NCBI GenBank assembly: GCA_945787155.1
Contig: CALZHD010000003.1
Span: 2,455 to 66,454, forward strand
Reading direction: 5' to 3'
Length of the DNA stretch: 64,000 bases
DNA from: an uncultured Gammaproteobacteria bacterium
Lineage (GTDB): Bacteria; Pseudomonadota; Gammaproteobacteria; SZUA-140
In this document: positions 4,503-33,883 of the stretch, in pieces
Position numbering within the stretch: position 1 is the first letter of the stretch
How the letters are laid out: the number at the start of each line of letters is the position of its first letter
Program-made: the position numbers and the translations under genes
The notes under the pieces: model-generated
The model's input: only the letters and a program-made list of their open reading frames with translations
Told to the model about the DNA's origin: nothing
The model's database searches: none

Positions 4503-5141
4503 TTAACCTTTTTGGGCAACCGCCTCGGCAATCAGATCGATGTAACGCTTAACGCGCTCATGCTTCATCTTCATCGACGCCTTGTTGACGATCAGGCGTG
4601 AACTGACATCGGCGATGTGATCCATCGGCACCAGACCGTTAGCCTTCAAGGTATTACCGGTATCGACGACGTCAACAATGCGATCTGCCAGCCCCACAAT
4701 CGGTGCCAGTTCCATCGCGCCGTAGAGCTTGATGATCTCGACCTGCTTGCCCTGCTCGGCAAAGTAGCGTTTAGCGGTCTCGACATATTTGGTCGCAATG
4801 CGCATGCGGCTCTCATCGACAACGCCATCTTCAGGCCCAGCGACCATCATGCGACATTTGGCAATTTTCAGATCAAGCGGTTCGTAGAGGCCGTCACCGC
4901 CATATTCAACTAACACATCTTTGCCGGCCACGCCCATATCGGCAGCACCGTATTCAACAAAGGTCGGCACATCAGAAGCACGAATCACCACCAGCTTCAC
5001 ATCATCGAGGTTAGTATCAAGAATCAGTTTGCGGCTGGTGGTTGGGTCATCGGCCGGAATAATGCCGGCATGCGCCAGCAGCGGCAGGGTCTCCTTAAAG
5101 ATACGCCCTTTCGACAGGGCGATGGTAATCGTTGCACTCAT
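4503..5141 (-). CDS. hisG: ATP phosphoribosyltransferase (long form)
   Basis: 212 aa, starting [22 protein letters not shown]. Typical HisG. The start overlaps the murA stop, indicating co-transcription. Confidence 0.95.
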
Positions 5142-5145: not shown

Positions 5146-6393
<1,248 letters not shown>

Positions 6394-6476: not shown

Positions 6477-6737
6477 TCAAAGTACCCTGCGTTTCTGCGC
6501 TTCTTCCCACTGCCCAGGGGTGTAGGTCTTCATTGACAGCGCATGGATCGCCGCGTTTTCAATATTGTCGCCCAATGTGGCATAGACCATTCGATGTTGT
6601 TGCAACATACCCTTGCCGTCAAAGGCCTCACTAATGACAATCGCCTCAAAATGAGAACCGTCACCGCTCACGCTGACCTGGCTATCAGGCATTCCTGCCT
6701 CAATCATCTTTTTTATTTCATCAATTTGCATCATCAA
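6477..6737 (-). CDS. ibaG: BolA-family protein (IbaG/YrbA-like)
   Basis: 86 aa BolA fold sequence (SGDGSHFEAIVISEAF...MVYATL). Sits between the mla operon and murA, as in the E. coli mlaFEDCB-ibaG-murA arrangement. Confidence 0.8.
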   Translation of the reverse strand: MMMQIDEIKKMIEAGMPDSQVSVSGDGSHFEAIVISEAFDGKGMLQQHRMVYATLGDNIENAAIHALSMKTYTPGQWEEAQKRRVL

Positions 6738-6872: not shown

Positions 6873-7226
6873 TTATGATGGGGCATCCGGCAACGATAAC
6901 ACCCCTTCGAGGCCACTCAAGTGAGCCAGTGCCAACATCTGTGTCGGGATATTAAGAAAGTTAATTTCAACACCCTGAGCGCGAGACTCTCGCATCCACT
7001 CTACCAGCAAGGCCAGTCCTGCGCTATCGGTACGGCCGACCCCTTGCAGGTCCATCGTGACACCAGCGCTCACCTCAGCAGACGCGGTATGACTCGGCAA
7101 TATACACTGAGCTTCGCGTAACAATCCCGGCACACTGGAAAAACTCAGTTCACCGCTAAGCAGAAACACTCCATCGTTGCGCAACTCAATTCGCGGCTTG
7201 ATGGCGCTACTGGCCATTGCGCGCAT
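6873..7226 (-). CDS. mlaB: STAS-domain protein, likely MlaB
   Basis: Small STAS/anti-sigma-antagonist-like protein immediately downstream of mlaC. The start is uncertain: ATG at 7226 or 7217. The longer ORF-track start overlaps mlaC. Confidence 0.65.
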   Translation of the reverse strand: MRAMASSAIKPRIELRNDGVFLLSGELSFSSVPGLLREAQCILPSHTASAEVSAGVTMDLQGVGRTDSAGLALLVEWMRESRAQGVEINFLNIPTQMLALAHLSGLEGVLSLPDAPS

Positions 7227-7827
7227 CCTGATTGCGCTTTTGCAACTGAGCAATCAAACCATCAATCCCGTTCAATTTGCGAATCTCGCTGGAAAAGGTA
7301 GTACGGTAGTTCAGCACCAGGCTAACAGCATCGATCTTGACGTTATAGACCTTCCATTCACCGTCCTTGAGATGCAGACTATAGTCTATCGGTATCGGGA
7401 AGCCACCTTTCTGGTCGATCTCAGTCCTGACCACCACATCGCCTTTATCCTTCCCCTCTCGAAAGGGCAGATAGTTAACCTCCTGACCAGAATAATCCAT
7501 CATCGCGGTAGCATAGGTGCGTACCAGCAGAAAGCTAAACTCCTTGATAAACTGTTCGCGCTGCGCCTCACTCGTTTTGCGCCAATGCTTACCCAGCACG
7601 AGTCGTCCCATGCGATCAAAGTCAAAGTGCGGCAACACAACACCCTCGACCAACTCATAGATATAGACTGGCTGCGCCTCAATCTTCTTTCGATCAGCCT
7701 CTATCAACGAAAGCATCTTGCTGGTGGTGTCCATCACCAGCTGCTGCGCTGGTGCATTGGCCCCAGCGACACTGATCGGCAACAGGGCAAAAAGCCACAG
7801 AGAGAGAATAAGAGGTAAGCGCTTCAT
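7207..7827 (-). CDS. mlaC: Periplasmic phospholipid-binding protein MlaC (Ttg2D family)
   Basis: 206 aa with a signal peptide and MlaC-like sequence (FSFLLVRTYATAMMDYSGQEV). Lies in the mla operon. Confidence 0.85.
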   Translation of the reverse strand: MKRLPLILSLWLFALLPISVAGANAPAQQLVMDTTSKMLSLIEADRKKIEAQPVYIYELVEGVVLPHFDFDRMGRLVLGKHWRKTSEAQREQFIKEFSFLLVRTYATAMMDYSGQEVNYLPFREGKDKGDVVVRTEIDQKGGFPIPIDYSLHLKDGEWKVYNVKIDAVSLVLNYRTTFSSEIRKLNGIDGLIAQLQKRNQDARNGQ

Positions 7828-9188
7828 AAATAATCTCCGGTCACATAACGCAGCTGTGCTACGTGCATATTATAGTCGTTCACCGCCATCAGGTAATCGC
7901 TGTAGACTAGCACGTACCCCTGAAATGCGGCCATTACCGCCTCTGAATCTTCGAGTCCCGCCTCAAAATCGACGTAGCGACTCACCATCCAGCGACGTGC
8001 AGAACGGCTCCCCTGTTTCAACTCGGTGACTGCCTTGTAGTGCCCCTGCACATTGTAATACTGCTCTGCAACCTGAAATGGGATCCCCTGCTGCGCAAAT
8101 GAAGAACGTTCGACCAGCGCCGCTAGCTCCGCATTCGCCCCCGCCACTTCGGCCGCCTGTACACCGTCGGCCCAGTCCCATTTAATCCCAATCAGCGGGG
8201 TTGCGCCATAATCGTTGAATGGATCGTAAACATGGGGATTTTCTAGCTTATCTCGCCTTGGGGCATAGGACGCGGCACCTGCAATCCCGGCGTAGATATT
8301 GGGAAGATTGGCCGAACGATGCGCCGCCACCAGTGAACGCCGTGCCTGCAACCCCGCCTCCAGCTGCATCATCTCGGGACGTCGCTCCAGCGCCCTGTGC
8401 TGCAAGGCCTCAAGCGTCTCCAGCGGCAGATCCACCGGACGGATCCGGCTATCGGCCAGTTCAAGCTCAACATCGCTGCCAATACCGGTCAACATCTTCA
8501 ACCCGGCCAATGCAATCGCTTCCACAGACTCCGCCTTTGCATAATAACGCCTCACCAGTGCGAGACCACTCTGCAACGCATACAGATCGGCCTGTCGCAC
8601 ATCACCGCTATCATTTTCAAGCCAGCGCTCCACCAGTTTCAGAGCCTTCTGCACACGCCCTTCAACATCTTCAAACAGATAACGGGTATCACGCGCCGCC
8701 AGATAACCGTAATAGGCGCGTGTCACATCGATCACAGTGTCGGCACGCTGAATGCGTACATCTTCTTGCTTGACTGCAATGTTGCCCTTGGCAGCATCTG
8801 CAAAGTGCCCGATTTTGCCAAAGGTGTAGAGTGGCTTGATGATGCTGAAACGCACCGAACTCCAGCTGGTCACGCCGCTATATTCATGTTTATCAGCACG
8901 CGGGGTAGTGCCATCGGCGGCAAAGAAACCGCCATCTATCTTGGTGGTCAAACCAACAAAGGCGTTGACATCCACACGGGTGTCATCACTGCCCTCAGCC
9001 TTCTGCAATAATGCACGTGCAGCATCAACCAGGCGCTGCCGCTCGTCAATGCGTGGATCACTCTCCAACGCACGCTCGACCGCGTCATCAAGCGACAACG
9101 ATGTTGTAGGCGTCGACTCATCGGCGCACACCAGTGAGCTACCTGCAATGCTCACTGCAATAAAACACCATAAGCGCTTAGCAACCAT
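7824..9188 (-). CDS. TolC-family outer-membrane efflux protein (OEP), embedded in the mla operon
   Basis: 454 aa with a signal peptide and two OEP-type repeats (LSLDDAVERALESDPRIDERQRLVDAARA... and LPLETLEALQHRALERRPEMMQLEAGLQARR). It overlaps mlaC by 4 bp and ends exactly at the mlaD start, so it is translationally coupled. Confidence 0.75.
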   Translation of the reverse strand: MVAKRLWCFIAVSIAGSSLVCADESTPTTSLSLDDAVERALESDPRIDERQRLVDAARALLQKAEGSDDTRVDVNAFVGLTTKIDGGFFAADGTTPRADKHEYSGVTSWSSVRFSIIKPLYTFGKIGHFADAAKGNIAVKQEDVRIQRADTVIDVTRAYYGYLAARDTRYLFEDVEGRVQKALKLVERWLENDSGDVRQADLYALQSGLALVRRYYAKAESVEAIALAGLKMLTGIGSDVELELADSRIRPVDLPLETLEALQHRALERRPEMMQLEAGLQARRSLVAAHRSANLPNIYAGIAGAASYAPRRDKLENPHVYDPFNDYGATPLIGIKWDWADGVQAAEVAGANAELAALVERSSFAQQGIPFQVAEQYYNVQGHYKAVTELKQGSRSARRWMVSRYVDFEAGLEDSEAVMAAFQGYVLVYSDYLMAVNDYNMHVAQLRYVTGDYL

Positions 9189-9664
9189 TATTCAGCCGCT
9201 CCTCCTTCTGATGCCTTGCTGAAGAGAAATTGGCCGATGATCTGCTCCATTACCATCGCCGACTGGGTCAGGCTTATTTTGTCGCCATCTTTCAAAAACA
9301 GCTCTTCACCCCCCGGTTCAAAACCGATGTACTGCTCACCGAGCAGGCCTGAGGTAAAAATGCTTGCCGAGGTGTCGGTCGGCAGGCGATTGTATTTGGG
9401 ATCAATCATCATTGTCACCACCGCCTCATAATCTTCCTGATCAAAGTCGATCGCTGACACGCGGCCGATACGCACACCGCCGATACTCACCGCCGACAGT
9501 ACCTTCAGCCCGCCTATATTCTCAAACTGCGCCTTAACCTCATACCCCTCGACATCAGAAAATGCGTTGAGATTGCTCACCTTCATCGCCAACATAAAGA
9601 GCGCGGCCATTCCCGCAGCAACAAAGATTCCCACCAGGGTCTCTACTAATCTTGTGTTTTGCAT
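9188..9664 (-). CDS. mlaD: MCE-domain protein MlaD
   Basis: 158 aa with an N-terminal transmembrane helix followed by an MCE domain (GLKVLSAVSIGGVRIGRV). Confidence 0.9.
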   Translation of the reverse strand: MQNTRLVETLVGIFVAAGMAALFMLAMKVSNLNAFSDVEGYEVKAQFENIGGLKVLSAVSIGGVRIGRVSAIDFDQEDYEAVVTMMIDPKYNRLPTDTSASIFTSGLLGEQYIGFEPGGEELFLKDGDKISLTQSAMVMEQIIGQFLFSKASEGGAAE

Positions 9665-9693
9665 TGCAATACTCCTTATACCTCGCCAAACAT

Positions 9694-10473
9694 CTATACT
9701 TCACCAAACATCAGGGCGGTCAAAACAAAATCGAGCCCCAGCACTGCCAGTGAGGCGTAGACCACGGTACGGGTAGTGGCACGACTCACCCCTTCTGAGG
9801 TCGGCACCGCATCATACCCCTCAAACACCGCCACCCATGTCACCACAACGCCAAAAACGATACTCTTGATCACGCCGTTCATAATGTCTTCATTAAAATC
9901 GACACGACTCTGCATCTGTGACCAGAAGGCACCCTCATCGACACCGAGCAACCCAACACCCACAAAGTAACCACCCATCACGCCAACCGCGCTAAAAATG
10001 GCGGCCAGCAGCGGCATCGACAACACCCCAGCGACAAAACGTGGGGCGATGACTCTCTTTAACGGATCAACCGCCATCATCTCCATCCCGGACAGCTGCT
10101 CGGTTGCCTTCATCAGGCCGATTTCAGCAGTCAATGCGGAGCCTGCACGCCCGGCAAACAGCAGCGCTGCCACCACCGGACCCAGTTCACGCACCAACGA
10201 CAGCGCCACCATCACACCCAGTGACTCTTCCGCGCCAAAATCAACCAACGTATTGTAACCCTGCAGCCCCAGCACCATGCCGACAAAGAGTCCGGCGACG
10301 ACAATGATCACCAACGACAACACGCCGACGGAGAAGAGCTGCTGAATCAGCAACCGCAGGCGCAACAGCAGCGAGGGTACCCCCGCGAGCACCGCAAACA
10401 GAAAGAGATGTGCACGCCCCAGGCGCTGAAACGCCGTCAACGCACCGTGACCCAACTGCTGAAAGGTGTTCAT
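9694..10473 (-). CDS. mlaE: Mla ABC transporter permease
   Basis: MlaE-like multi-TM permease. The start is placed at the ATG overlapping the mlaF TGA (ATGA junction); the longer ORF-track start would overlap mlaF. Confidence 0.9.
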
Positions 10474-11288
10474 CGTCCGCCCCCGCGCGACAACAACTCT
10501 TCGGCATAGTCGCCTGCCGGGTAATGAAACGGCACCGGGCCATCCGGCATCCCCTGCATAAACTGGCGCACCCACTCAGATTCAGACTGATGCAACTCAT
10601 CCGGCGTTCCCTGCCCCACCACGACGCCTTGCGATAGCACATATATATAGTCAGCAATCTGCGAGGCCTCGGCCACATCGTGCGAGACAATGATACTGGT
10701 CAACCCTAGCACCTCGTTCAGATCGCGAATCAGCTTCACCAGCACCCCCATTGAGATTGGATCCTGCCCGGTAAACGGTTCGTCGTACATGATCATCATT
10801 GGGTCAAGCGCAATCGCACGCGCCAGCGCCACCCGTCGCGCCATGCCACCCGACAACTCACTCGGCATGAGTCGCTGCGCACCGCGCAATCCGACCGCCT
10901 CAAGCTTCATCAACACCAGATCACGTACCATCGTCTCTGGCAAGGCGGTGTGTTCACGCAGGGGAAAGGCAACATTATCGAACACTGAAAGATCCGTCAG
11001 CAGTGCACCGCTCTGAAATAACATCCCCATGCGCTTGCGCAGTTCGAACAGTTCGCGTCGTGATAGACGAGGCACCTCATGCCCATCGACGTGAATAGTG
11101 CCGGCAGAGGGTCGGATCTGGCCACCGATCAGACGTAGCAACGTCGTCTTGCCGGTACCGCTCGGCCCCATGATGGCAGTCACCTTGCCGCGTTGCAGAT
11201 CAAGGTCGATGCCGTCGAAGATCACCCGCGAACCGAAATGAAAGGTCAGTCCGCGCGCCTCTACCAGATTATTATTTTTATCCATCAT
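10470..11288 (-). CDS. mlaF: Mla ABC transporter ATP-binding protein
   Basis: 272 aa with Walker A (GPSGTGKTT), an ABC signature and Walker B; the usual MlaF position. Confidence 0.9.
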
Positions 11289-11327: not shown

Positions 11328-12683
11328 TTATGTCCCAGCAACGGTCATCGCATCGATCAGCAACGAGCCACACTTGATATTGCCACGATGGTCTACATCA
11401 TTGCCCACCGCCTGTAACTGCATGAACATATCGCTGAGATTACTCGCAATCGTGATCTCATCAACCGGATAGGCTAGCTCACCATTTTCGACCCAGAAAC
11501 CGGCCGCGCCGCGTGAGTAGTCACCGGTCACCGTATTGACACCCATGCCGAGCAGTTCTGTCACCAGCAGGCCTGTGCCCATCTCGCGCAATAGTCCCTG
11601 CTGGTCATGCGCCCCCGGCTCAATCAGTACATTATGCACACCACCCGAGTTACCGGTACTGGCCATGCCAAGTTTACGGGCGGAATAACTATCAAGCACA
11701 TAGCCCTGCAATACCCCATCACGTACCAGATCACGCGCATAGGTTGCCACCCCTTCACTATCGTATGGCGCACTGCCCAGCACCTTCTTCATATGCGGTC
11801 GCTCATGAATATGGACAAATTCAGGGAAGATCTGCTCGCCAAGCTTATCCAGTAGAAATGAAGACTTACGATAAAGATTGCCACCCCGGATCGCAGAGAT
11901 CATATGCGACACCAGACTGCCTGCCACATCCGCAGCAAACAGCACCGGTACCTTACAGGTATCAATGCGCCGACCTCCCAGACGCTGCAATGTTCTCGCG
12001 GCGGTCTTTTTACCAATCTCGGCGGCTGCTTCAAGGTCACGTCGATCACGTGCGACTGAATACCAGTAATCTCTCTGCATGCCATTCTCATCTTCGGCGA
12101 TCACACTACAACTCATGCTGTGACGCGAAGTCGAATAGCCGCCCATAAAACCGTGGCTATTGGCATAGACACGTGTCCCCTCATGACTGGAGAGACTCGC
12201 GCCTTCAGAATTTGAAATCTGCGGGTCAAAACTGCGCGCGGCATCTTCACACTCTTTGGCGAGCTCGATCGCCGTTTCGGGAGAGACATCCCAGGGGTAA
12301 TAGAGATCAAGATCAGGGATCTCCGTTGCCATACGGTCGGCGTCGGCCAGTCCCGCATAAGGATCTTCCGCGGTAAATTTTGCGATGCTACACGCGGCGC
12401 GTACCGCATCTTCCAGTGCCGACGTCGAAAAATCAGCCGTACTCGCCGTCCCTTTTCGCTTATCAAAATAGACGGTAACGCCGATCCCTTTGTCTTTATT
12501 AAACTCAATCGTCTCGACCTCGCCAAGACGCACATTAATCGACAGACCAGACTCCTCACTCAGTGCCGCTTCTGCGGCTGTCGCCCCTTGCGCCTTTGCC
12601 AGTTGCAACACCTGGGCAGCGACCGACTCCAATGATGCCTGATCCTTCAATATATCACGCGCCTTTGCAATATCCCCGCTCAT
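11328..12683 (-). CDS. pmbA: Metalloprotease PmbA (TldE)
   Basis: 451 aa TldE/PmbA-family sequence, paired with tldD and overlapping it by 4 bp. Confidence 0.9.
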
Positions 12684-14134
12684 ACGCTGGTACCTCCAAC
12701 GGTGAGGCCATCGATCAGCAATGTTGGCTGCCCCACACCGACCGGCACACTCTGCCCCTCTTTACCGCAGGTCCCCACTCCCGCATCAAGTGCGAGATCA
12801 TCACCGACCATCGTCACACGCTGCAGCACATCGGGGCCATTGCCAATCAACGTCGCGCCTTTTACTGGGTAGGTCACCTTGCCGTTTTCAATCATGTAGG
12901 CCTCACTGGCAGAAAAGACAAACTTGCCAGAGGTGATATCCACCTGCCCGCCACCAAAGTTGACCGCATAGAGGCCGTTGTCGACCGATGCGATGATCTC
13001 TTCCGGTGCATGCTGGCCCGGCAACATATAAGTATTGGTCATGCGTGGCATCGGCAGATGCGCGTAAGATTCACGGCGACCATTGCCAGTGGATGCAACG
13101 CCCATCAGGCGCGCATTGAGCTTGTCCTGCATATACCCCTTGAGCACACCCTTTTCGATCAACACAGTATTCTCGGACGGCATCCCTTCATCATCGATAT
13201 TCAATGAACCGCGACGATGCGCCAGCGTGCCATCGTCAACCACGGTGCAGAGATCGGAGCCAACACGCTCACCGACGCGTCCCGAGAAGGCTGAGGTCCC
13301 TTTGCGGTTGAAGTCGCCTTCAAGGCCGTGACCAATCGCTTCATGAAGTAACACCCCGGGCCAGCCTGAACCCAATACCACCTGCATCGTGCCGGCCGGT
13401 GCCTCCTCTGCCTCCAGATTAACCAGCGCCTGACGCACCGCCTCTTTGGCATAACCGAGACCGCGCTCTTCATCGATAAAATATTGGTAATCACGGCGAC
13501 ATCCACCTCCCGAGCTGCCCTGCTCGCGTCGTCCATCCTGCTCCACGATGACACTGACATTAAGTCGCACTAATGGACGCACATCCGCTGCATGGGTGCC
13601 ATCGGTTGCGGCTAACAACACAACATCGTAGCCACCTGCAAGCGAAGCGGTCACCTGCTTGACCCTTGGATCGAGCTTACGCGCTTCGCGATCAAGCAAC
13701 TCCAGCAAGTCTATCTTTGCCCGATCTCCAAGGCTTGCCAATGGATCGGTCGGCAGATAGAGGCTATGCCCTTCGGTACGCGACCATGTCTGCACCCGTT
13801 TGTCCTGCCCCTGACGCGCAATGGCTCGCGCCGCTAATGCAGCATCCTGTAGCGCTGGCAATGCAATCTCATCTGAATAGGCAAAACCACTCTTTTCACC
13901 ACTCACTGCGCGGGCACCGACACCCTGTTCAACACTGTGCACACCATCAGTCACAATGCCATCTTCCAGTGTCCATGATTCGAAACGGCTCGCCTGAAAA
14001 TAGAGGTCGGCATAATCAACATCGTGGCACATGATGCTGGAAAGCACCTGTTCCAGGTTATTCAACTCCAACCCACTCGGCGCCAGCATCAGCTGCTGAA
14101 CGTTATCAATTGAGGAATCTATCGGAATATTCAT
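12680..14134 (-). CDS. tldD: Metalloprotease TldD
   Basis: 484 aa with full-length TldD similarity (HEAIGHGLE zinc motif). Confidence 0.9.
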
Positions 14135-15133: not shown

Positions 15134-18100
15134 TCATTGCTCTGCGTCACTATCAATCGTCGTGACAGCTTCACGCGTGACAACCGGGGCTTCCCACGGC
15201 CCTTTCACACTGTATCTCACCTGTGTTACCCGATCGAGGTTTAGTAGCTTCTGCGCCAACAATATAGCGGCACCAATGCCCAAACTGCCAACCACCGCGC
15301 CCACTACCGGTAGCGATGATGCCACGTGAGGTTCTACAATCACATCCTGGTCGTAATCTTTTGCGACCAGCCCCACCCGACCGGTCATCCTGATCGACGC
15401 CGATGGCCCAACAACACTGAAGTTCGTGGTGGTCGCATCACCGCCATGGATCTCAAAATCACCTTCCATGCGATCAAAACTAAATCCTTTTTTAAACATA
15501 TCGCTAAAATCAAGTGTCAACCGGCGTGGCAACGCCTGCAAACTAATCAACCCAAAGACCCGACCTGCCCCCGGCTCCACATCCAGCAGTCGACCATCTT
15601 CAACTTTGAGGTGCATATTACCATTGAGATGCGCCATCGCGAAGGCCGTCGGCGGACCCGGCCAGCGGACAATAATTCCGATATCACCCTTGCCGCCGCG
15701 GATACTGTCAGCAATATCGAGTCTTGCCAACATACCCCCAAGATCCTGACTCTTAATACTCATCTTAAATGCAGAATGCTGCTCGTCATTGGCCACCACC
15801 CAATCACCACTGATCTGTGCATTCATCAACCGTGATGAAAGCTGCAGGTGATTTACATGCAAACCGGCCCGGGTTTTTGCAGCCAACAACTTCAGACTGC
15901 CAAGTGGCTGCCCCTCATAGCTAAAATAGCGACTGTTAATATTCATTGCGGGCAAATTTTGTGGATTCATCCTGGCATCGTCCGCTTTATCACCGATATC
16001 GCCTGCGCCCTCATCTTCTACTGCCGATGGCAAAATGAGGTAATCCAGCACCATGGCCAGTGAATCGCGCTCGAAGTCTATTGGTATTTTCAGCGCACCG
16101 CCCACCAGATGATTACTAATGGTCCCCTGCCAAAGGCCCGCTGCCTGAATCAACGCAAGAGAGGTATAGTGAAACGCATAACCAAATGCCGACGCCTGCT
16201 CTATTTCCAGATTGAGCCGTCCGATCTCTACTGGCGTAGCCTCGTTACGCTTATCGGCACCGTCATCTGTTGCCTCAAAGAGCGGCATCCACTCCTCTAG
16301 CGAAAGGCGCTCAAGCTTCCCGTCCACACTGATCAACGCCTTTTCCGGCAACTCTGGCACCTCCCCCCCCAGAGTAATACCCCCTCGCTGTAACGCCATC
16401 GACTTATCAACATCGAAAATCCCACGTAGCTGCGAGCCATAATGCAGCACCACCGGCACATCCAGCTCGCGAGGAAATGCCGTCTCAAGGACAAATTTTG
16501 CAGGCTCTGCCGCATTTTTACCCAGCGGAAAGGGGAGGTCTGCTGCCATCCCTTGCAGGTCGGATGTCACCTTGAAACTTGCGCCATGTTCCGCCACGCC
16601 TTCAGAAGGTATCGTAAGCTGCGCCTGCCATACCGCCGCACCATCGACATGCTGAAGCAGTGAGTTTGACAACAGACGCCGCACATCCGCAGCAGTTGCA
16701 CGGCCATCGGCAGTAATCACAGTATCCCCCCCCTGCGGTAGCGGTAGCGTCCTGGCGTGCAGCAGACTATCCATACCTAACAGCCGGGCCTGCGCCTGCT
16801 TGATTTCAATCCCCTTTTCAGAGAACTGTAGATCACCGTTCACATCCAGGATATCGACGGCGCGATCAGCCAGATAAAAATCGGCTGCCTCAAAGTGCAC
16901 CACACCATTCACCTTCGCGGGTTGATTCGCTAGCGGTAATTTAAGTGAAAGATCGAGTTTACTGCGCCCGGCAGTCACTTCGACACCCTCTGCAAACGCA
17001 CCAAAACGCTTATTCAAAGGGCTACGCCGTACAAAATCGAGCGTGTCACGTGCATGGCCTTGCGCCTTGCCATCAAGTTGCAACAGCGCGGGCCGGGCAC
17101 GCAGGTTATCAATCCGCGCCTTTACCTGCATCACGTCCGCATCAAGACTCTTTGCGGCAACAGCGTTGATCTCCATGCTGCTACCCGCAAAGATCACTTC
17201 GGCCTCCATCTCTTCGAGCCGTGGCCACTCCGGGGCATAGTCGAGTATGCCCTCGGTGAGGTTAAAACGGATATCAAATAGCCCATCGCTATCTTCATAT
17301 GGGAAACGGCGGTCGAGTGGGCCATATAAAATCACCTCTCCAGCCGAAGCATTCCCAGCGACAATGGCGCGATCAAGCCAGTCGATGGTCGCACTCGGCA
17401 TGACACCAACCGGCAGATAGTGCGAGATATTAGTGATACTGGGCGCCTTGAATTGAGACAGCAACGCTATCTCCGGCGCCCCTTCACTTTTCTTAAGCGC
17501 CAACGCCAACGATACCTCTGCATCATCATTTTTCAGCTGTAGTGACCGGCTCTCAAGCTGCCATTTATCCGCTGCCTGCTGCCAATAAACATCGCCCACC
17601 AATGTTGTCATCGCAAGCGGAGCGCGAAAAAGCTTCGGGATTGAAACCGAGGCATTCACGCTGTCCAATGCAAGATAGCCACCATTATTGTCAAACCTCA
17701 CCCGGCCATCTATCCCCTGACCACCTGGCAACTTACCTACTGCATTGACACCAAGGCCATCGAAACCACTGGCAACGACATAATGATAATCCTGTTTCTC
17801 TTCACGGGAAGGATCCCTGAAATGGAGATAACCTCCCCGCAGCTCACCACTCGGTGCAAACGCCTGTAGCTGCTGCCGCTGCTTTTCATTCACGACATCA
17901 CTCATCATTAAGAACGCACTTAAGTCGTCAATACGAGCATAACCAAGGCGCGCTTCTATGGCTTGTTCGCCTTCAAGCCGATCGGATCTCGCCACACTTA
18001 ACTGACTCGGTGGCCACATTCTGTTGTCACGACCAAGCATAAAATTGTCGATAGTGAGTGACCAGTCGCGTTTCTGACGTTTCCATGTATAACTGCCAGA

Positions 18101-19054
18101 TACAAGATCGACCTTCATCGGAATGCGCCCACCTGCTTCATCCACTGCCATAATGGGTGTCAACAATAATTGCCTCACTGAAAGCTCACCTTCAGCACGC
18201 TGTATCACTGCATTACGCCATTCTAACCATAAACGCGTTTCGACCAGCCCATTATCCACTCGCACGCCAGCCAATGCTTGCCCTTCAAGCCACTGCGCTA
18301 ACTGTAATCCAGCGCCTTCGACATAACCTTGCGCATTCCACGCTTGATCAGACTGCAAATCACTTTCGATATCCAATGCAAATGAAAGCGTGCGCCCAAA
18401 TTCAAGCGGGAGCTGGGCGGAACCATCCAGTTGATGTCGATCCCCCTGATTACGTATTTCAAACGCCACATTGGAGAAGTGCAATTCGCGCCCCCCCTCT
18501 TTCAAGTCATGCCACGTTACGTCACTCGACTCAATGACCATGCGTGACTGCGAAAAAAACCAGCGCAGTAACGCTTGCTCATCCTCCAACTGACGCTGCG
18601 CCTGCTCTTCCTCACTGTCATGCTGTGATGATGCAGCCTCAAAACCTGCCACGCTGATCTTGCCGTTCTCATCACGTGTAATCACCAGCTCCACATCCGA
18701 TACCACAAGGTTTTCAATTTGCAGTGCGCGATCATACAGGCTGTGCCAAAGATTGAAGCCAACGCTACCACTCTCAAAATGAAGCAGCTCGGTGTCGCCA
18801 CTCAATACCTGAACCCCGTGCATCTTCAGCTGCGGCCCGGCACCATGCCAGGCGGCATTGATCGAGCGCACTTTTACCGTTGCGCCCACCGCACGACTAA
18901 TCGTCTCTTCTATCTGTTGATGAAATGTACCCAGATAGGGCAATAAAATACGCGCACTGGTCACCAGCAAGGCAATCACAATAATAGTGATCGCAGTCAA
19001 TGCCCAACATTTGATTAATGTGGCTCGGATCACGACGCGTTTGCTCGAAAACAA
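15134..19054 (-). CDS. yhdP: YhdP-family (AsmA-like) inner-membrane envelope protein
   Basis: 1306 aa with an N-terminal TM anchor, a long beta-rich body and a DUF3971/AsmA2 C-terminal region. Conserved rng-yhdP neighbourhood. Confidence 0.85.
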   Translation of the reverse strand: MFSSKRVVIRATLIKCWALTAITIIVIALLVTSARILLPYLGTFHQQIEETISRAVGATVKVRSINAAWHGAGPQLKMHGVQVLSGDTELLHFESGSVGFNLWHSLYDRALQIENLVVSDVELVITRDENGKISVAGFEAASSQHDSEEEQAQRQLEDEQALLRWFFSQSRMVIESSDVTWHDLKEGGRELHFSNVAFEIRNQGDRHQLDGSAQLPLEFGRTLSFALDIESDLQSDQAWNAQGYVEGAGLQLAQWLEGQALAGVRVDNGLVETRLWLEWRNAVIQRAEGELSVRQLLLTPIMAVDEAGGRIPMKVDLVSGSYTWKRQKRDWSLTIDNFMLGRDNRMWPPSQLSVARSDRLEGEQAIEARLGYARIDDLSAFLMMSDVVNEKQRQQLQAFAPSGELRGGYLHFRDPSREEKQDYHYVVASGFDGLGVNAVGKLPGGQGIDGRVRFDNNGGYLALDSVNASVSIPKLFRAPLAMTTLVGDVYWQQAADKWQLESRSLQLKNDDAEVSLALALKKSEGAPEIALLSQFKAPSITNISHYLPVGVMPSATIDWLDRAIVAGNASAGEVILYGPLDRRFPYEDSDGLFDIRFNLTEGILDYAPEWPRLEEMEAEVIFAGSSMEINAVAAKSLDADVMQVKARIDNLRARPALLQLDGKAQGHARDTLDFVRRSPLNKRFGAFAEGVEVTAGRSKLDLSLKLPLANQPAKVNGVVHFEAADFYLADRAVDILDVNGDLQFSEKGIEIKQAQARLLGMDSLLHARTLPLPQGGDTVITADGRATAADVRRLLSNSLLQHVDGAAVWQAQLTIPSEGVAEHGASFKVTSDLQGMAADLPFPLGKNAAEPAKFVLETAFPRELDVPVVLHYGSQLRGIFDVDKSMALQRGGITLGGEVPELPEKALISVDGKLERLSLEEWMPLFEATDDGADKRNEATPVEIGRLNLEIEQASAFGYAFHYTSLALIQAAGLWQGTISNHLVGGALKIPIDFERDSLAMVLDYLILPSAVEDEGAGDIGDKADDARMNPQNLPAMNINSRYFSYEGQPLGSLKLLAAKTRAGLHVNHLQLSSRLMNAQISGDWVVANDEQHSAFKMSIKSQDLGGMLARLDIADSIRGGKGDIGIIVRWPGPPTAFAMAHLNGNMHLKVEDGRLLDVEPGAGRVFGLISLQALPRRLTLDFSDMFKKGFSFDRMEGDFEIHGGDATTTNFSVVGPSASIRMTGRVGLVAKDYDQDVIVEPHVASSLPVVGAVVGSLGIGAAILLAQKLLNLDRVTQVRYSVKGPWEAPVVTREAVTTIDSDAEQ

Positions 19055-21550: not shown

Positions 21551-23164
21551 ATGCAAAACAACAGTCACATCGAATATTCGTCCAACATACAGATATGGAC
21601 CCCCCTCCGTCTGCTAAACCTATATCGAATCACGCTCGCAGGCCTTGCCACCATACTCTGCTACTCTGATGCAGTCCCCTACCCATTAGGGTCAAGCAAC
21701 TTCCTGTTTTTTTACGTCACCAGCATTATTTACCTGATAGTTGGTCTATTAAATATCATCACCATCAAACGACAGGCCCCCCTGTTTGAATACCAGATTT
21801 ACGCTCATGTTTTTATCGACATCATCATCATCACCCTGTTAATGCAGGCAAGTGGCGGTATTAGCAGCGGAATGGGAATATTATTAGTGATTGCTGTCGC
21901 GGCAGGAAGCCTCCTGATCGTTGGGCGCACCGCAATCATTTTCGCATCAGTCGCAACCCTTGCTGTGCTGACAGAGCAGATCTACGCTCACTGGAGCAGA
22001 CCGCTACTGGAAGTCAATTACACCCAGGCAGGCTTACTTGGTGCTAGTTTTTTCGCGACAGCCATCCTTACACAGGCACTTGCAAGAAGGCTACGCGAGA
22101 GTGAGAACCTTGCAGAGAAACGTGGCGTTGACCTCGCCAACATGGCGCAACTGACTGAATACATTATTCAGCGCATGCAAACAGGCATTCTGGTCATCAA
22201 TCACAACAAACACATTCGCCTCATCAACGCCTCAGCCTGTCACCTGCTAGAAGCACAGACGCAGTCTGCTATAAAGACAACCAGCGACCTTCCTACCAGT
22301 CTGACAGCACAAATCGAACATTGGTGGACTCACCCAGATGATGAACCTAAAGCATTCAAATCATCAGACACTGCGATCAATATAATGCCGCGTTTTGCCC
22401 GTCTGGGAGAGGAAATAGATGCTGGCACGCTGATTTTTCTTGAGGATATGGCGGCAGTCGCACAGCAGGCGCAACAATTAAAACTTGCATCACTTGGCGG
22501 CCTCACTGCCAGTATTGCACATGAAATTCGTAACCCGCTCGGCGCCATCAGCCATGCTGGACAACTGCTCGCCGAAACGCCTCAGTTACCCAAAAGTGAA
22601 AAACGCCTCACTGAGATCATTCAGCAGCATTCCCAGCGAATCAATACTATTATCGAAAACATCATGCAACTCAACAGGCGAGATCGCTCTAATCCTGAGG
22701 AGATCGACCTCAATCAATGGCTCGCATCATTCGTCGACGACTTCTATCTTAATGAAGAGGTACTACGCACCCAAATACACCATAGCCTGCCTGAAGAGAT
22801 CAACATCATTCGCTTTGATGCTAGCCAGCTACACCAGGTTTTATTCAACCTTTGTCAAAATGGATTACGCCATGGCGATCAAAATGGAACGCCACAACTT
22901 TGGCTACAGGGCGGGCTCAACATAGAGTCGAACAGCCCCTATCTTGATGTTATCGACAATGGCAAGGGCATCGACCCTACGCTTGCAGAACATATCTTTG
23001 AACCCTTTTTCACCACGGCAACAAACGGCACAGGGCTGGGGCTATATATCTCTCGCGAACTATGCGAGTCTAACCAGGCCCACCTTAACTACATATCAAT
23101 CCTCGATGGCGGCGGCTGCTTTCGCATCACCTTTGCCGACCCAAGACGACGACAGGTAATCTAG
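21551..23164 (+). CDS. pilS: Type IV pilus sensor histidine kinase PilS
   Basis: 537 aa with an N-terminal multi-TM region, H-box (SIAHEIRNPLGAI) and HATPase_c. Immediately upstream of a sigma-54-type response regulator and pilA. Confidence 0.85.
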   Translation: MQNNSHIEYSSNIQIWTPLRLLNLYRITLAGLATILCYSDAVPYPLGSSNFLFFYVTSIIYLIVGLLNIITIKRQAPLFEYQIYAHVFIDIIIITLLMQASGGISSGMGILLVIAVAAGSLLIVGRTAIIFASVATLAVLTEQIYAHWSRPLLEVNYTQAGLLGASFFATAILTQALARRLRESENLAEKRGVDLANMAQLTEYIIQRMQTGILVINHNKHIRLINASACHLLEAQTQSAIKTTSDLPTSLTAQIEHWWTHPDDEPKAFKSSDTAINIMPRFARLGEEIDAGTLIFLEDMAAVAQQAQQLKLASLGGLTASIAHEIRNPLGAISHAGQLLAETPQLPKSEKRLTEIIQQHSQRINTIIENIMQLNRRDRSNPEEIDLNQWLASFVDDFYLNEEVLRTQIHHSLPEEINIIRFDASQLHQVLFNLCQNGLRHGDQNGTPQLWLQGGLNIESNSPYLDVIDNGKGIDPTLAEHIFEPFFTTATNGTGLGLYISRELCESNQAHLNYISILDGGGCFRITFADPRRRQVI

Positions 23165-23428
23165 TGCTCTATCCCCGTGATAATTACGGATTCAGCGCCC
23201 CTGTGGCGTTTCGCAGCAAGGCACAGTGCGAAAGCAATGGCCATTCCCTTGTCGAGCACTGCAAAGTAGTTGTGGAATGTTATAGGGACGCCCTTCGGGT
23301 TAACTTGTCAACGCCCACGGACTGCGTTCCACCTCTTGACGAGGGAGCACTATTGTTCGCGAGGCGCACCTTGCCGTGAACGTTGACAAGCTAACTGAAC
23401 TCGTAATTATCACATGGATAGAGCACTA
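23163..23428. mobile_element. Putative miniature inverted-repeat element (MITE-like / structured RNA) filling the pilS-pilR gap
   Basis: 26-bp terminal inverted repeats: AGTGCTCTATCCCCGTGATAATTACG at 23163-23188 and its reverse complement with 2 mismatches at 23403-23428. The interior has further long-range complementarity (GTTAACTTGTCAACG at 23299-23313 versus CGTTGACAAGCTAAC at 23381-23395), a C-UUCG-G tetraloop and several short hairpins. The element spans exactly from the pilS stop to 2 nt before the pilR ATG. Confidence 0.4.
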
Positions 23429-23430
23429 AT

Positions 23431-24786
23431 ATGAATCAACCTACCGCACTGGTCGTCGATGACGAACCCGATATCCGCGAATTACTGGAACTCACCCTGC
23501 TACGCATGGGGATCGACTGCTATACAGCGGCATCTGTGACGGCAGCCAAAGCGGTATTGCTGCAACATCCCGATGTCGATCTCTGCCTCACCGACATGAA
23601 ACTCCCGGATGGCAATGGCATCGACCTCGTACAGTATATACAGGATCGCTACCCCGAGATCCCCTCAGCCGTCATCACAGCACACGGCAACATGGAGTCT
23701 GCGGTACAGGCGCTTAAGGCGGGTGCATTCGATTTTGTCTCCAAGCCAGTGGACCTCGGCATGCTGCGCACGCTGGTCACTACCGCACTAAAACTCAGCC
23801 CCAAAAACCAGACGACCAAACAGGAAGCCGCGCTCACACTACTGGGTGAATCCGGCGCCATTGAGAGCACTCGCGCCACCATCGCTAAACTTGCTCGTAG
23901 CCAGGCCCCAGTGCATATTAACGGCGAGTCAGGTACCGGCAAAGAGCTCGCTGCACGCCTGATTCACGAACAGAGCGCTCGCGCAGACAAACACTTTATA
24001 CCGGTCAACTGTGGCGCAATTCCCGAAGCGCTAATGGAAAGCGAATTCTTCGGCCACAAAAAAGGAAGCTTTACAGGTGCCACCACGAACAAGGACGGCC
24101 TCTTTCAGGCCGCCGATGGCGGCACGCTGTTTCTCGATGAAGTGGCCGACCTGCCACTTCACATGCAGGTCAAACTCCTGCGCGCCATCCAGGAGAAAGC
24201 GGTACGCCCCATCGGCGAACATCAGGAGATCAACATCGATGTACGCATTCTCAGCGCCACTCACAAGGATCTCGCGCAGCTAGTCAAGGAAGGAAAATTC
24301 CGTCAGGATCTTTTCTATCGTATCAACGTCATCGAGCTCCATATCCCGGCATTAAGAGAACGATCTGATGATATCCCGCTGCTCATCACCCATATATTGG
24401 AACGGCTTGCCGTCAATGAAGGGGGCAATACGCCATCACTACATGATGAGGCACTGACAGCACTGCTTAACTACGATTTTCCAGGTAATGTACGGGAATT
24501 GGAAAACATTCTGGAACGGGCCATGACCCTGTGTGAAGGCAGCAGTATCCGAACGGAAGATCTACAGTTGATTCATCACACGCCTCAGATGCAGATCACT
24601 AGCACCACTCCCCCAACGACGCCTTCAGGCAAAAATAGGCCACTCGACCCCCTGCTCGGTGATATCGAAAAGGAAACCATCGTAAAGGCACTGGAACAGG
24701 CCAAATACAATAAGACCGCCGCAGCCAAACTGCTCGGCATCTCATTTGGCGCATTGCGCTATCGTATGAAAAAGCTGGGGCTATGA
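23431..24786 (+). CDS. pilR: Sigma-54-dependent response regulator PilR
   Basis: 451 aa with a REC domain (DDEPDIREL...D54 context), an AAA+ sigma-54 activation domain (GESGTGKE, GAFTGA-like) and a C-terminal Fis-type HTH. Confidence 0.9.
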   Translation: MNQPTALVVDDEPDIRELLELTLLRMGIDCYTAASVTAAKAVLLQHPDVDLCLTDMKLPDGNGIDLVQYIQDRYPEIPSAVITAHGNMESAVQALKAGAFDFVSKPVDLGMLRTLVTTALKLSPKNQTTKQEAALTLLGESGAIESTRATIAKLARSQAPVHINGESGTGKELAARLIHEQSARADKHFIPVNCGAIPEALMESEFFGHKKGSFTGATTNKDGLFQAADGGTLFLDEVADLPLHMQVKLLRAIQEKAVRPIGEHQEINIDVRILSATHKDLAQLVKEGKFRQDLFYRINVIELHIPALRERSDDIPLLITHILERLAVNEGGNTPSLHDEALTALLNYDFPGNVRELENILERAMTLCEGSSIRTEDLQLIHHTPQMQITSTTPPTTPSGKNRPLDPLLGDIEKETIVKALEQAKYNKTAAAKLLGISFGALRYRMKKLGL

Positions 24787-24923
24787 ATTGTCGCCAGCAC
24801 ATATCGCCATACAAACCGGCACCAACTGCGCTTTAAGCACAGATTCTGTTCAAAATGCGCACCCTGACAACCATGAGATCACATAGCCGTGCCATTATAA
24901 AGCTCTGTAAATCAGTGCTATTC

Positions 24924-24939
24924 TGTGACCTCCGTCACA
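24924..24939 (+). promoter_or_regulatory. Palindrome TGTGAC-N4-GTCACA, a candidate PilR/enhancer site upstream of the pilA sigma-54 promoter
   Basis: Perfect 6-bp inverted repeat about 65 bp upstream of the -24 element. PilR sites characterised in other species contain (C/G)TGTC cores. No binding-site scan could be run. Confidence 0.3.
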
Positions 24940-24992
24940 AAATACAGGCAAAAACAGATCGCACAGCCCGTCTACTACAAAAAACTAAAGTT

Positions 24993-25008
24993 TGGCACGG
25001 TGCATGCA
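24993..25008 (+). promoter_or_regulatory. Sigma-54 (-24/-12) promoter of pilA
   Basis: TGGCACGgtgcaTGCA matches the TGGCACG-N4-TTGCW consensus with correct GG/GC spacing. It lies about 95 bp upstream of the pilA ATG and downstream of pilR. Confidence 0.65.
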
Positions 25009-25102
25009 GATACCAATGTGCGAGGCAAGCATATCTCCGGTATATGGAGAACAAGAGCAACGCCAGAAAAGCTAAACCATTTATATACTCAGGAGAACAA
25101 AT

Positions 25103-25558
25103 ATGAAAAAAGTACAACAAGGTTTTACACTGATTGAATTGATGATCGTGGTCGCCATTATCGGTATTTTGGCCGCCATCGCGATTCCACAATTTCAGGA
25201 TTATGTGACACGCGCCAAATTCCAGGATGGCACGGCCGCAATCTCTTCCGTCAGAACAGCAACCGCTGTCTGTATTCAAGAAAATGCAGGAGACCCAATG
25301 TCTTGTGATGATAATACTGAAATCGGTGTAGTCATGGGAACGACTGCTGCAGAAGGCGCCATCACTATCTCTCGAGGCACATTTACTGCCAGCACCAATG
25401 GTACAGGTGGCACAGCAGTATTCGTCATCACCGGCGATGCCACTCTGGGCGCTTGCGTTGTCACAGCTACTGGCACTGTCAATGCGACCGACATCAGCTG
25501 GGATTACGTAACCACTGGCACTAACTGCACAAAATCAAAAACAGGCTATGACACATAA
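25103..25558 (+). CDS. pilA: Type IVa major pilin
   Basis: 151 aa with a class III leader MKKVQQG followed by [22 protein letters not shown] (prepilin peptidase site G/F, Glu5). The C-terminal region contains 4 Cys. Confidence 0.9.
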
Positions 25559-25584
25559 TAGCTAGTACTACCCTCCCCTCTGGC

Positions 25585-25617
25585 CCCCTACAGTTTCTGT
25601 AGAGGGCCATTTTTTTA
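25585..25617 (+). terminator. Rho-independent terminator after pilA
   Basis: A 9-bp GC-rich stem (CCCTACAG-ttt-CTGTAGaGGG, one bulge) followed by CCA and a T7 run. Confidence 0.7.
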
Positions 25618-25823
25618 TATTTAGGACTCCTCTAAAACAACACCACTCATTGCTAGCAACCCGTTGTTTTTCGAATAAACGAAGAATGAACTAACAATGT
25701 GCGTCAAAGACCTGATGCCTATCGTTAGCGGTAAGTCATAAACACTTTCTAACCCCCTAAACAATTGCTGCGCATAGCCGATAGCTTTCATACGATAAGA
25801 TAACTCAATTAATTCTGATAGTT

Positions 25824-27542
25824 ATGAGTACACCAGCAACCAGTATTAACCTCAGCGGTCTCGCCAGAAAACTGGTGTTAGACGGACTGCTGGAAGAAGA
25901 TAAGGCCATTGAAGCCAATGAACAGGCGAGCAAAAAAAAGACACCCCTGGTTCGCTATCTTGTAGAAAATGAAATATTAGACAGTAGCTCCATCGCTCAC
26001 GCTGCCGCACAAGAATTTGGCACCCCTGTTTTCGATATCAACAGCATGGATTTAGAGATCGCAGCGACTAAGCTGATCGATCATAAAATGATCCAGAAAC
26101 ATAACGCGCTACCACTATTTAAGCGTGGTAATCGCCTCTTTGTCGCCGTATCTGACCCAACTAATCAGCAAGCACTGGACGAATTCAAATTCAATGTAGG
26201 CGCCAATGCCGAAGCAATTCTAGTTGAAGAAGATAAACTCGCCAAAATCATTGAACAGGTCTTAAATGAGCAAGACACCAGCATGGATGATCTTGACGAC
26301 ACCGATCTGGATGATATCGACATATCCGGCGGTGATGAAGATAGCATGGGAGATGATAGCGATGACTCCGAGGTAGACGATACCCCGGTAGTGCGCTTCG
26401 TCAACAAGGTATTGCTCGATGCCATCAACAAAGGGGCATCTGATCTCCATTTCGAACCTTATGAGAAGGTCTACCGGGTCCGTTTTCGTGTTGATGGCAT
26501 CCTCCAGGAAGTCGCCTCCCCACCCATTTCGCTGGTAAGAAAGATTTCTGCTCGTATCAAAGTACTCTCTCAACTGGATATCTCGGAACGCCGCGTCCCT
26601 CAGGATGGACGGATGAAGATGAAGATTTCAAAGACCCGCGCGATCGATTTTCGTGTCAGCACCTGCCCCACATTGTTTGGTGAAAAGATCGTTATGCGTA
26701 TTCTTGATCCCAGCAGCGCCACCCTCGGCATCGACGCACTTGGGTACGAACCAGACCAGAAAAAACTCTTCATGGACGCCATCCATAAACCTTATGGCAT
26801 GGTGCTGGTTACCGGCCCAACAGGGAGTGGTAAAACGGTATCACTCTACACCGCGCTCAACATTCTCAATACCGATGACCGCAATATCTCAACCGCGGAG
26901 GATCCGGCAGAAATTAGCCTCGCGGGTATAAACCAGGTCAACGTAAACCCCAAGGCAGGACTCACCTTTCCGGCCGCATTGAAATCATTTCTACGCCAGG
27001 ATCCAGACATCATCATGGTGGGTGAGATTCGTGATATTGAGACAGGGGAGATTGCGATCAAAGCGGCGCAGACAGGTCACTTTGTGCTCTCCACACTTCA
27101 TACCAATGATGCACCGCAAACCTTGACGCGGCTGATCAACATGGGTATCGCACCCTTCAATATCGCCTCAGCAGTGAGTCTGATCATTGCGCAACGATTG
27201 GGACGCCGTCTGTGTAGCCATTGCAAGCAACCCGTTGATCTCCCCAAGGAAGCTCTGTTAAAAGAGGGTTTCAAGGAAGAGGAACTCGATGATCTCACTA
27301 TTTATGGCCCTGTTGGATGTGATCAATGCAACGGCGGCTACAAGGGCCGTGTCGGTATTTACCAGGTCATGCCAATTTCAGAGGGCATGGGAAAACTTAT
27401 CATGGAAGGCGGCAATGCAATACAACTCGCTGAACAGGCAAAAGTAGAAGGCGTCAACGATCTTCACGCTTCCGGGCTAATAAAGATCAGACAAGGTATT
27501 CTCAGCCTCGAAGAACTCAACCGAATCGTCACTGCCGACTAA
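25824..27542 (+). CDS. pilB: Type IV pilus assembly ATPase PilB
   Basis: 572 aa GspE-family secretion ATPase with Walker A (GPTGSGKT), an Asp box and a tetracysteine motif (CSHC...CDQC). Confidence 0.95.
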   Translation: MSTPATSINLSGLARKLVLDGLLEEDKAIEANEQASKKKTPLVRYLVENEILDSSSIAHAAAQEFGTPVFDINSMDLEIAATKLIDHKMIQKHNALPLFKRGNRLFVAVSDPTNQQALDEFKFNVGANAEAILVEEDKLAKIIEQVLNEQDTSMDDLDDTDLDDIDISGGDEDSMGDDSDDSEVDDTPVVRFVNKVLLDAINKGASDLHFEPYEKVYRVRFRVDGILQEVASPPISLVRKISARIKVLSQLDISERRVPQDGRMKMKISKTRAIDFRVSTCPTLFGEKIVMRILDPSSATLGIDALGYEPDQKKLFMDAIHKPYGMVLVTGPTGSGKTVSLYTALNILNTDDRNISTAEDPAEISLAGINQVNVNPKAGLTFPAALKSFLRQDPDIIMVGEIRDIETGEIAIKAAQTGHFVLSTLHTNDAPQTLTRLINMGIAPFNIASAVSLIIAQRLGRRLCSHCKQPVDLPKEALLKEGFKEEELDDLTIYGPVGCDQCNGGYKGRVGIYQVMPISEGMGKLIMEGGNAIQLAEQAKVEGVNDLHASGLIKIRQGILSLEELNRIVTAD

Positions 27543-27558
27543 CCCTTAGGAAATTAAA

Positions 27559-28782: not shown

Positions 28783-28835
28783 TCTCAAAAAAGAATCACC
28801 AATCAACAGATCAAACCAGAGTCTGAATAAATATT

Positions 28836-29743: not shown

Positions 29744-29763
29744 ATTCTCATGCGGGCTATCTC

Positions 29764-33815: not shown

Positions 33816-33883
33816 CCCTCAATATTTGCACCCTTTATAGAATAGAACAACTCTCCCGTCCTAAAATCACTCCAGGAGTCACC

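Follow-up and report, generated by a model that had tools for sequence, protein, structure and literature searches.

The DNA analysed here is a 64-kb stretch of contig CALZHD010000003.1 from an uncultured member of the Gammaproteobacteria (the window), and its main subject is an mla lipid transport operon that holds a gene of the TolC family. Listing of open reading frames (ORFs), together with searches against Pfam and NCBIfam, gave the minus-strand order mlaF-mlaE-mlaD-OEP-mlaC-mlaB-ibaG-murA-hisG, in which OEP denotes an ORF of 454 amino acids (aa) at 7824-9188 (Pfam OEP PF02321, E=8e-34). A sequence-only reading of this DNA had placed a TolC-like gene between mlaD and mlaC, starting at the stop of mlaD, overlapping mlaC by 4 bp and translationally coupled within the run from mlaF to murA, and this placement was borne out at both junctions.

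At the mlaD/OEP junction (9186-9205, minus strand), as read from the sequence, the TAA of mlaD (9190-9188) and the ATG of the OEP gene (9188-9186) share one A, giving TAATG at 9190-9186, with a GGAGG Shine-Dalgarno sequence (9205-9201) situated 12 nucleotides (nt) upstream of the start. At the OEP/mlaC junction (7824-7838, minus strand), read in the same way, the TGA of the OEP gene (7826-7824) and the ATG of mlaC (7827-7825) form a 4-nt ATGA overlap at 7827-7824, and GGAG is found 7 nt upstream of the mlaC start (7838-7835). The OEP gene is translationally coupled within the mla operon by these overlapping stop and start codons.

No terminator was found at either OEP junction, there being no intergenic space on either side to hold one, and the eight promoter-like sites identified in the region compare with 7.6 ± 3.3 expected by chance. 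The OEP gene as a separate transcription unit, isolated by a promoter or terminator of its own, therefore finds no support. A sigma-70-like site (GTGACA-18-TACAAT, 10/12 matches) within mlaD, approximately 200 nt before the OEP start (9389-9418, minus strand), could act as an internal promoter, with such sites occurring at chance frequency in the region. The GC content of the OEP gene (0.53-0.59) was the same as that of the neighbouring genes. Antisense ORFs of 184, 204 and 213 aa lie opposite the OEP gene and mlaC (8219-9011 and 7177-7818, plus strand) and were taken as shadow ORFs of the coding strand in a GC-rich stretch.

The full Mla set, consisting of MlaF, MlaE, a single-MCE MlaD, MlaC and a STAS-domain MlaB, is encoded together with the OEP on the minus strand, as identified with Pfam and, for MlaE and MlaD, also by NCBIfam scores above cut-off. 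The ABC ATPase of the Mla inner membrane complex is encoded by mlaF (10470-11288, Pfam ABC_tran E=1e-30), whose product reached 422 bits with the NCBIfam MlaF equivalog PRK11831, just short of the cut-off of 441. The permease gene mlaE (9694-10473, Pfam MlaE E=5e-74) gave 430 bits with perm_MlaE_1 (cut-off 315). Although its listed ORF runs to 10575, the start is probably the ATG at 10473, because the NCBIfam alignment begins at residue 39 of that ORF, the resulting length of 259 aa agrees with the 256-261 aa of MlaE in relatives and this ATG creates an ATGA overlap with mlaF. The gene mlaD (9188-9664, Pfam MlaD E=3e-21) encodes a short single-MCE protein of 158 aa that matched the 146-position model TIGR04430 (OM_asym_MlaD) from end to end with 185 bits (cut-off 135).

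The product of mlaC (7207-7827, Pfam MlaC E=7e-57) is a 206-aa lipid carrier of the periplasm that bears a signal peptide. Among NCBIfam models it scored higher with HpnM (101 bits) than with the E. coli-type MlaC equivalog PRK15117 (88 bits), both under their own cut-offs, which suggests that the cargo of the system may differ from the E. coli-type phospholipid. The STAS-domain subunit gene mlaB (6873 to approximately 7217, Pfam STAS_2 E=8e-13; 34 bits with NCBIfam mlaB_1, under cut-off) probably starts at the ATG at 7217, or possibly at 7226, with the listed ORF reaching 7253; the overlap of 11 nt between mlaB and mlaC recurs in a related locus (L006). Downstream lie ibaG of the BolA family (6477-6737, Pfam BolA E=6e-18), murA (5146-6381, Pfam EPSP_synthase E=4e-125) and hisG (4503-5141, from the ORF listing), all on the minus strand.

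Family and fold of the 454-aa protein

Membership of the OEP family, as the sequence-only reading had assigned it, was recovered with PF02321 at 117.5 bits (cut-off 22) over two stretches that represent tandem OEP repeats. The structure of the protein was modelled with AlphaFold2 using 49 homologues (predicted local distance difference test, pLDDT, 86.6; predicted template modelling score, pTM, 0.75), giving a duplicated topology of short helices, a beta-hairpin, a helix of approximately 67 aa and another of approximately 36 aa. Foldseek comparison of this model to the PDB returned only outer membrane factors (OMFs) of the TolC/OprM fold, namely TolC, ST50, OprM, OprN, OprJ, CusC, SilC, CmeC, MtrE and VceC (E=1e-19 to 1e-14, template modelling (TM) score 0.70-0.77, probability 1.00, 12-18% identity). 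The OEP is proposed to form a trimer with an outer membrane barrel and a periplasmic alpha-tunnel.

The N-termini of the protein and of 48 relatives, with signal peptides and lipobox judged by eye, were found to carry a Sec signal peptide with an AxA-type site, while a conserved Cys or a lipobox was absent from them. A lipoprotein OMF of the OprM/NodT type was therefore ruled out, the protein resembling TolC in this regard. It missed the cut-offs of both NCBIfam subfamily models by a wide measure (TolC TIGR01844, 38.7 against 225.15 bits; NodT TIGR01845, 28.6 against 210.05 bits). When 1.84 billion representative proteins were searched exhaustively with phmmer, just 1,944 matched at E<=1e-3, and a gap in score separated a core family (44-50% identity, 360-486 bits) from all others (<=251 bits). 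A profile of the family found solved OMFs in the PDB at 1e-17 to 1e-6, with none better.

Conservation in the family is highest in three segments, namely QPLYTFGK at the junction of strand 2 and helix 3, the second extracellular loop (NRDxxxNPFxxDPFN) and a GxGE motif at periplasmic tip 2, in which G411 is invariant. Extracellular loops of OMFs are normally variable, so that a conserved loop is unusual. Comparison of both sequence and predicted structure thus indicates that the 454-aa protein is a divergent OEP family member of TolC/OMF fold and not a lipoprotein.

Gene neighbourhoods and fusions of the OEP family

Relatives were collected with a metagenome scan using family alignment A3 (375 relatives, 80 loci retrieved), a scan of genome contigs with the single OEP protein (at least 5 loci) and a profile search with distant members (alignment A4, at least 29 matches). 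Of 104 related loci in all, adjacency was counted over the first 100, for those with enough flank only, and the taxonomy of carriers rests on the source labels of metagenome-assembled genomes (MAGs). MlaD was encoded directly upstream of the OEP in 86 of 87 loci, and MlaC directly downstream in 83 of 83. The one locus lacking MlaD upstream (L068, 1-2890) has an NAD-dependent dehydrogenase-like ORF in its place and keeps the OEP-MlaC pair. Overlaps of 1 or 4 nt were found at 74 of 94 MlaD-to-OEP junctions, with 90 of the 94 lying within 30 nt, and at 72 of 89 OEP-to-MlaC junctions.

Homologues with 76, 55, 54 and 54% identity were identified in the order mlaF-E-D-OEP-mlaC-STAS, usually continued by ibaG-murA-hisG, and two loci at approximately 45% OEP identity share this mlaF-E-D-OEP-mlaC-STAS arrangement; ibaG is found downstream in most gammaproteobacterial loci. 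Labelled carriers were a Thiotrichaceae MAG, Ca. Tenderia electrophaga (Tel_16245) and Halothiobacillaceae MAGs. Across 73 loci, identity of the OEP to that of the window correlates with the identity of MlaD (r=0.96), MlaC (r=0.94) and MurA (r=0.94), and the OEP gene is therefore regarded as having descended vertically along with the rest of the operon. That a tolC gene had been inserted locally or acquired by horizontal transfer was considered and rejected on the basis of the ordinary GC content, the synteny described above and this co-divergence with MurA and the Mla proteins.

The association extends beyond the lineage of the window. For OEP relatives at 34, 32, 31 and 27% identity, MlaD flanks the OEP, as does MlaC where the contig allows, in neighbourhoods that are unrelated to that of the window. 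One has the module followed by STAS-tilS-like genes, another reads mlaE-mlaF-mlaD-OEP-mlaC-rplU-rpmA-obg and a further one mlaE-mlaF-mlaD-OEP-mlaC-cNMP-binding, with one relative lying on a short contig that holds MlaD-OEP only. The labels of these clusters include 'Proteobacteria bacterium CG1_02_64_396', an Alphaproteobacteria MAG and Nitrospinota. MlaD in the carrier operons is of the short E. coli type (145-188 aa). Near-obligate synteny, co-divergence with the mla genes and retention of the module down to approximately 27% identity in other phyla support the OEP as a dedicated part of a variant Mla architecture and not a passenger, much as the sequence-only reading had suggested.

At approximately 25% OEP identity, the inner membrane engine differs. 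Locus L102 (1801-6252) has the order PAP2_3-DUF3108-MlaC-OEP-MMPL, and in L104 (85-3149) an HpnL-like LPG_synthase_TM domain reads into the OEP and is followed by MlaC with a 4-nt overlap ([LPG_synthase_TM~OEP]-MlaC), while a short contig (L103, 1-3694) has an MMPL~OEP read-through (P0260). This MMPL~OEP product and the LPG_synthase_TM~OEP product (P0205) were treated with caution as fusions, since an internal signal peptide is kept in them, and were taken as evidence of adjacency only. No MlaA- or HpnS-like gene was found in the MMPL-linked branch loci seen (L102, L104). The position of these relatives beside hopanoid-type lipid genes suggests that they may form an OEP-containing version of the proposed HpnN/HpnM route, which is described below.

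Proteins combining an N-terminal OEP with a C-terminal MlaC were also identified. One of these, P0194 (677 aa), is encoded on three contigs from three samples (L014:1696-3729, L015 and L016), directly after mlaE-mlaD, and a homologue search with it gave at least 24 distinct clusters at 90% identity that possess both Pfam domains (P0332-P0355). These OEP-MlaC fusions are 629-718 aa in length with 58-100% identity to P0194, and occur on contigs of up to 1.48 Mb, one of them labelled Polyangia, with unfused relatives of approximately 470 aa alongside. Their OEP domain ends in a conserved LFYLAPP tail, followed by a Gly/Pro/Ala-rich linker of 19-89 aa that falls into two length classes (approximately 20 aa and approximately 50-90 aa). 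No hydrophobic signal-like stretch was present in the linkers (maximum 12-residue Kyte-Doolittle mean of 1.36). The number of two-domain clusters and the signal-free linkers indicate that these fusions are genuine and long-maintained, with MlaC having lost its own signal peptide. By contrast, a lone candidate MlaD+OEP fusion (P0381, 648 aa) was rejected: with its Arg-rich filler and an OEP signal peptide in its interior, it most probably arose from a frameshift or a gene-calling error where the two genes overlap.

Across these comparisons, the constant partner of the OEP clade is indicated to be MlaC, and not MlaD or any particular engine, because MlaC is fused to the OEP, accompanies it without MlaD in L102 and L104 and remains paired with it in L068.

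Proposed role of the OEP and alternatives

Searches for other partners of the OEP gave no genes for an HlyD/MFP adaptor, ACR_tran/RND pump, MacB or HlyB within the 64-kb window or the context tables of homologues. Similarly, an E. coli MlaA query (PF04333), validated against PDB 8i8r_D, had no tblastn match in the window or in 102 loci, with the search covering the window and loci with flanks of about 10 kb. Based on the constancy of MlaC, the short MlaD and the lack of a linked adaptor, pump or MlaA, the OEP trimer is proposed to be an outer membrane terminus. We consider it somewhat probable that the 454-aa protein is a specialised OMF of TolC fold that serves as the outer membrane component of the Mla-type system of this lineage and works via MlaC.

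By this proposal, MlaC would ferry lipid between the OEP trimer and MlaFEDB. It would dock on the OEP and exchange lipid there, freely in the system of the window and as a tethered domain in the fusions, and would also dock on the MlaD hexamer of MlaFEDB, a role that may be likened to that of the membrane-fusion adaptors of efflux pumps or of MlaA-OmpC/F at the E. coli outer membrane. By the topology of TolC, the C-terminus of the OEP would be situated at the equatorial belt. From this position, a tether of 20 residues would hold MlaC near the tunnel and not let it cross the periplasm, which hints that MlaC may be a static adaptor joining the tip of the tunnel to the ring formed by MlaD. If this is true of the short-linker fusions, Mla would in their case be a tripartite trans-envelope machine.

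Several points weigh against this role for the OEP. All of the evidence is comparative or derived from structural prediction, and with a search for MlaA that covered the window and the loci, an OEP that replaces MlaA looks the same as one that adds to it. The water-filled tunnel of TolC is not an obvious path for lipid, and its 12-stranded trimeric barrel is not known to have a lateral gate. Finally, the lack of a linked adaptor gene is weak evidence, because in E. coli, too, tolC lies apart from the genes of its pumps.

An alternative, considered unlikely, is that MlaA is encoded elsewhere in the genome and that the OEP trimer substitutes for OmpC/F as its scaffold, with MlaC docking on MlaA and the tunnel remaining free of lipid. 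Canonical MlaA does need a trimeric outer membrane partner (PMC10665443), the whole canonical MlaFEDCB set is present in the window and the search for MlaA was limited to the window and flanks of about 10 kb. However, mlaA is often operon-linked in other bacteria (PMC5561183), whereas no linked MlaA was identified in any of the 104 loci. The loci seen of the MMPL-linked branch are likewise without an MlaA/HpnS-like gene, and the fusions tie MlaC straight to the OEP and not to an MlaA-like protein.

It is decidedly unlikely that the OEP is an ordinary TolC that acts as a general exit duct for unlinked efflux or type I secretion and is merely co-transcribed in an envelope biogenesis operon. Its fold and size are those of a canonical OMF, an unlinked tolC is known from E. 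coli and genes of other functions (ibaG, murA and hisG) do follow in the same operon. Yet adjacency to MlaC persists across phyla, neighbourhoods and inner membrane engines and has been converted to conserved fusions, while the protein scores far under the cut-offs of the curated TolC and NodT models and has family-specific motifs, including an extracellular loop of a kind that is normally variable in OMFs.

A direct conduit, in which an MlaD hexamer meets the OEP trimer tip-to-tip as MacA or AcrA hexamers meet TolC to give a continuous trans-envelope tunnel, is highly improbable: the two genes are adjacent and overlap in 74/94 cases and the 6:3 symmetry would match as in MacA-TolC, but MlaD (145-188 aa) has no elongated helical domain and by known TolC and MlaD dimensions should miss a tip approximately 100 Å below the outer membrane, MlaC is kept throughout, the OEP and MlaC also occur as a pair without MlaD (L102, L104, L068) and the sole 'MlaD+OEP' fusion is a frameshift artefact. 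The suggestion of the sequence-only reading that MlaD docks on the channel as in a tripartite pump is thus not upheld, given the 158-aa MlaD of the window, the lack of a linked adaptor and MlaC as constant partner.

Comparison to known lipid transport systems

The OEP as outer membrane component via MlaC was compared to systems already described. To our knowledge, MlaA-OmpC/F is the only known outer membrane end of Mla. The E. coli system (MlaA-OmpC/F, MlaC, MlaFEDB) shares with the window MlaF, MlaE, a short single-MCE MlaD, a soluble MlaC and a STAS-domain MlaB, along with the operon backbone and the downstream ibaG-murA. The window differs in the addition of a TolC-fold gene between mlaD and mlaC, the canonical operon having no gene for an outer membrane channel, and in that no MlaA was found within it. 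As in AcrAB-TolC, MacAB-TolC and HlyBD-TolC, a TolC-fold OMF (TM-score 0.70-0.77) accompanies an inner membrane engine of the ABC or RND type. In contrast to these systems, the window has no adaptor gene and the periplasmic partner is MlaC, a soluble or tethered lipid-binding protein. The OMFs of tripartite efflux and type I secretion differ further from the OEP of the window, which scores under the TolC and NodT cut-offs and in which the second extracellular loop is conserved.

A tolC homologue directly after mlaD in a lipid transport cluster is also found among the Negativicutes (mlaEFD-tolC-tamB in Veillonella parvula; PMC10665443), an order that lends some support to a direct MlaD-OEP conduit. 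However, the Veillonella cluster lacks MlaC, MlaB and MlaA, whereas the window has a short MlaD with MlaC and MlaB and its OEP gene is wedged between mlaD and mlaC. The Veillonella MlaD is elongated, with a C-terminal outer membrane beta-barrel, and has been proposed to bridge the envelope itself, unlike the 158-aa protein of the window. Its TolC was used as an outer membrane marker only, with no role given in Mla (PMC10665443).

For hopanoids, a route of HpnN (MMPL), HpnM (MlaC-like) and HpnS (MlaA-like), with HpnL, has been proposed (bioRxiv 10.1101/2025.07.29.667474 / PMC12324291). The distant OEP relatives resemble this in lying beside MMPL, MlaC-like and HpnL-like (LPG_synthase_TM) genes, and the MlaC of the window scores slightly better with HpnM than with E. 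coli-type MlaC. The route differs in that its outer membrane part is the MlaA-like lipoprotein HpnS, the proposal mentioning no OEP or TolC (PMC12324291), and in that the locus of the window is driven by MlaFED and not by MMPL. These relatives provide a link between lipid export of the Mla type and of the HpnN/MMPL type.

Lipid traffic to and from the outer membrane, and the direction of Mla, are still debated. A capability for inner-to-outer transport (export) is favoured here by the HpnN-like MMPL pairing of the sister branch, as HpnN is required for localisation of hopanoids to the outer membrane (cited in PMC12324291). If the pairing is of this nature, it would imply export for at least part of the family.

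With regard to previous surveys, the MCE gene neighbourhoods described by Isom et al. (PMC5561183) comprise permease, ATPase, MlaC, STAS, DUF330 and sometimes MlaA, with no OEP, and a phylogenomic survey searched for MlaA-F and TamB only (PMC10665443). In the table of the latter, the mla accessions of the reference genomes of Sulfuricaulis, Nitrosococcus, Wenzhouxiangella, Francisella, Vibrio and E. coli are contiguous, so that no gene is wedged between them, and the mla genes of Beggiatoa are scattered. The sequence-only reading had raised the possibility of a widespread norm that was already described. The arrangement is indeed the norm in its lineage and widespread; however, no description of an OEP inside mlaFEDCB, or of an OEP-MlaC link, was found in the open-access and bioRxiv literature searched. 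An Mla system with a dedicated TolC-fold outer membrane component would thus be new with respect to the searchable literature.

Such a system would give a conserved TolC-fold partner to MlaC from sulfur-oxidising Gammaproteobacteria to Nitrospinota, and is a candidate explanation of how Mla could operate in lineages that have no obvious MlaA or porins. It would also mean that a distinct branch of the TolC superfamily, whose members are labelled just 'TolC family protein' by automated annotation, serves a purpose other than efflux. The Polyangia OEP-MlaC protein represents a natural 'Rosetta-stone' fusion. Interaction of MlaC with the OEP is a concrete and testable prediction. More tentatively, the OEP family may represent a third architecture of intermembrane lipid transport in several phyla, in which a TolC-like duct and a free or tethered carrier of the MlaC family are powered interchangeably by MlaFEDB or by an HpnN-like MMPL/RND protein. 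If true, this architecture would be present in Pseudomonadota, Nitrospinota and Myxococcota and would stand beside the MlaA-porin shuttles and the bridges formed by YhdP/TamB, LetB/PqiB and long MlaD proteins.

A gene for a second lipid transport protein was identified 6 kb upstream of the mla operon on the same strand. This encodes YhdP (15134-19054, minus strand; PF13116, E=5e-269), an AsmA-like intermembrane lipid bridge of 1306 aa, and two lipid transport systems are therefore clustered at this position. The order in the window is yhdP, CN_hydrolase, tldD (12680-14134) and pmbA (11328-12683), the latter two from the ORF listing and on the minus strand, followed by mlaFED-OEP-mlaCB, and the same layout was found in loci L006 and L008. 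Elsewhere in the window, Pfam returned nothing at E<=1e-5 for a 275-aa ORF between an NTP_transferase gene and gpsA (49615-50442, minus strand). A type IV pilus block at 21551-31261 (plus strand) consists of pilS-pilR and pilB-pilC-pilD followed by coaE and zapD, and together with a bioBFHCD operon at 33797-38516 it forms an ordinary housekeeping context.

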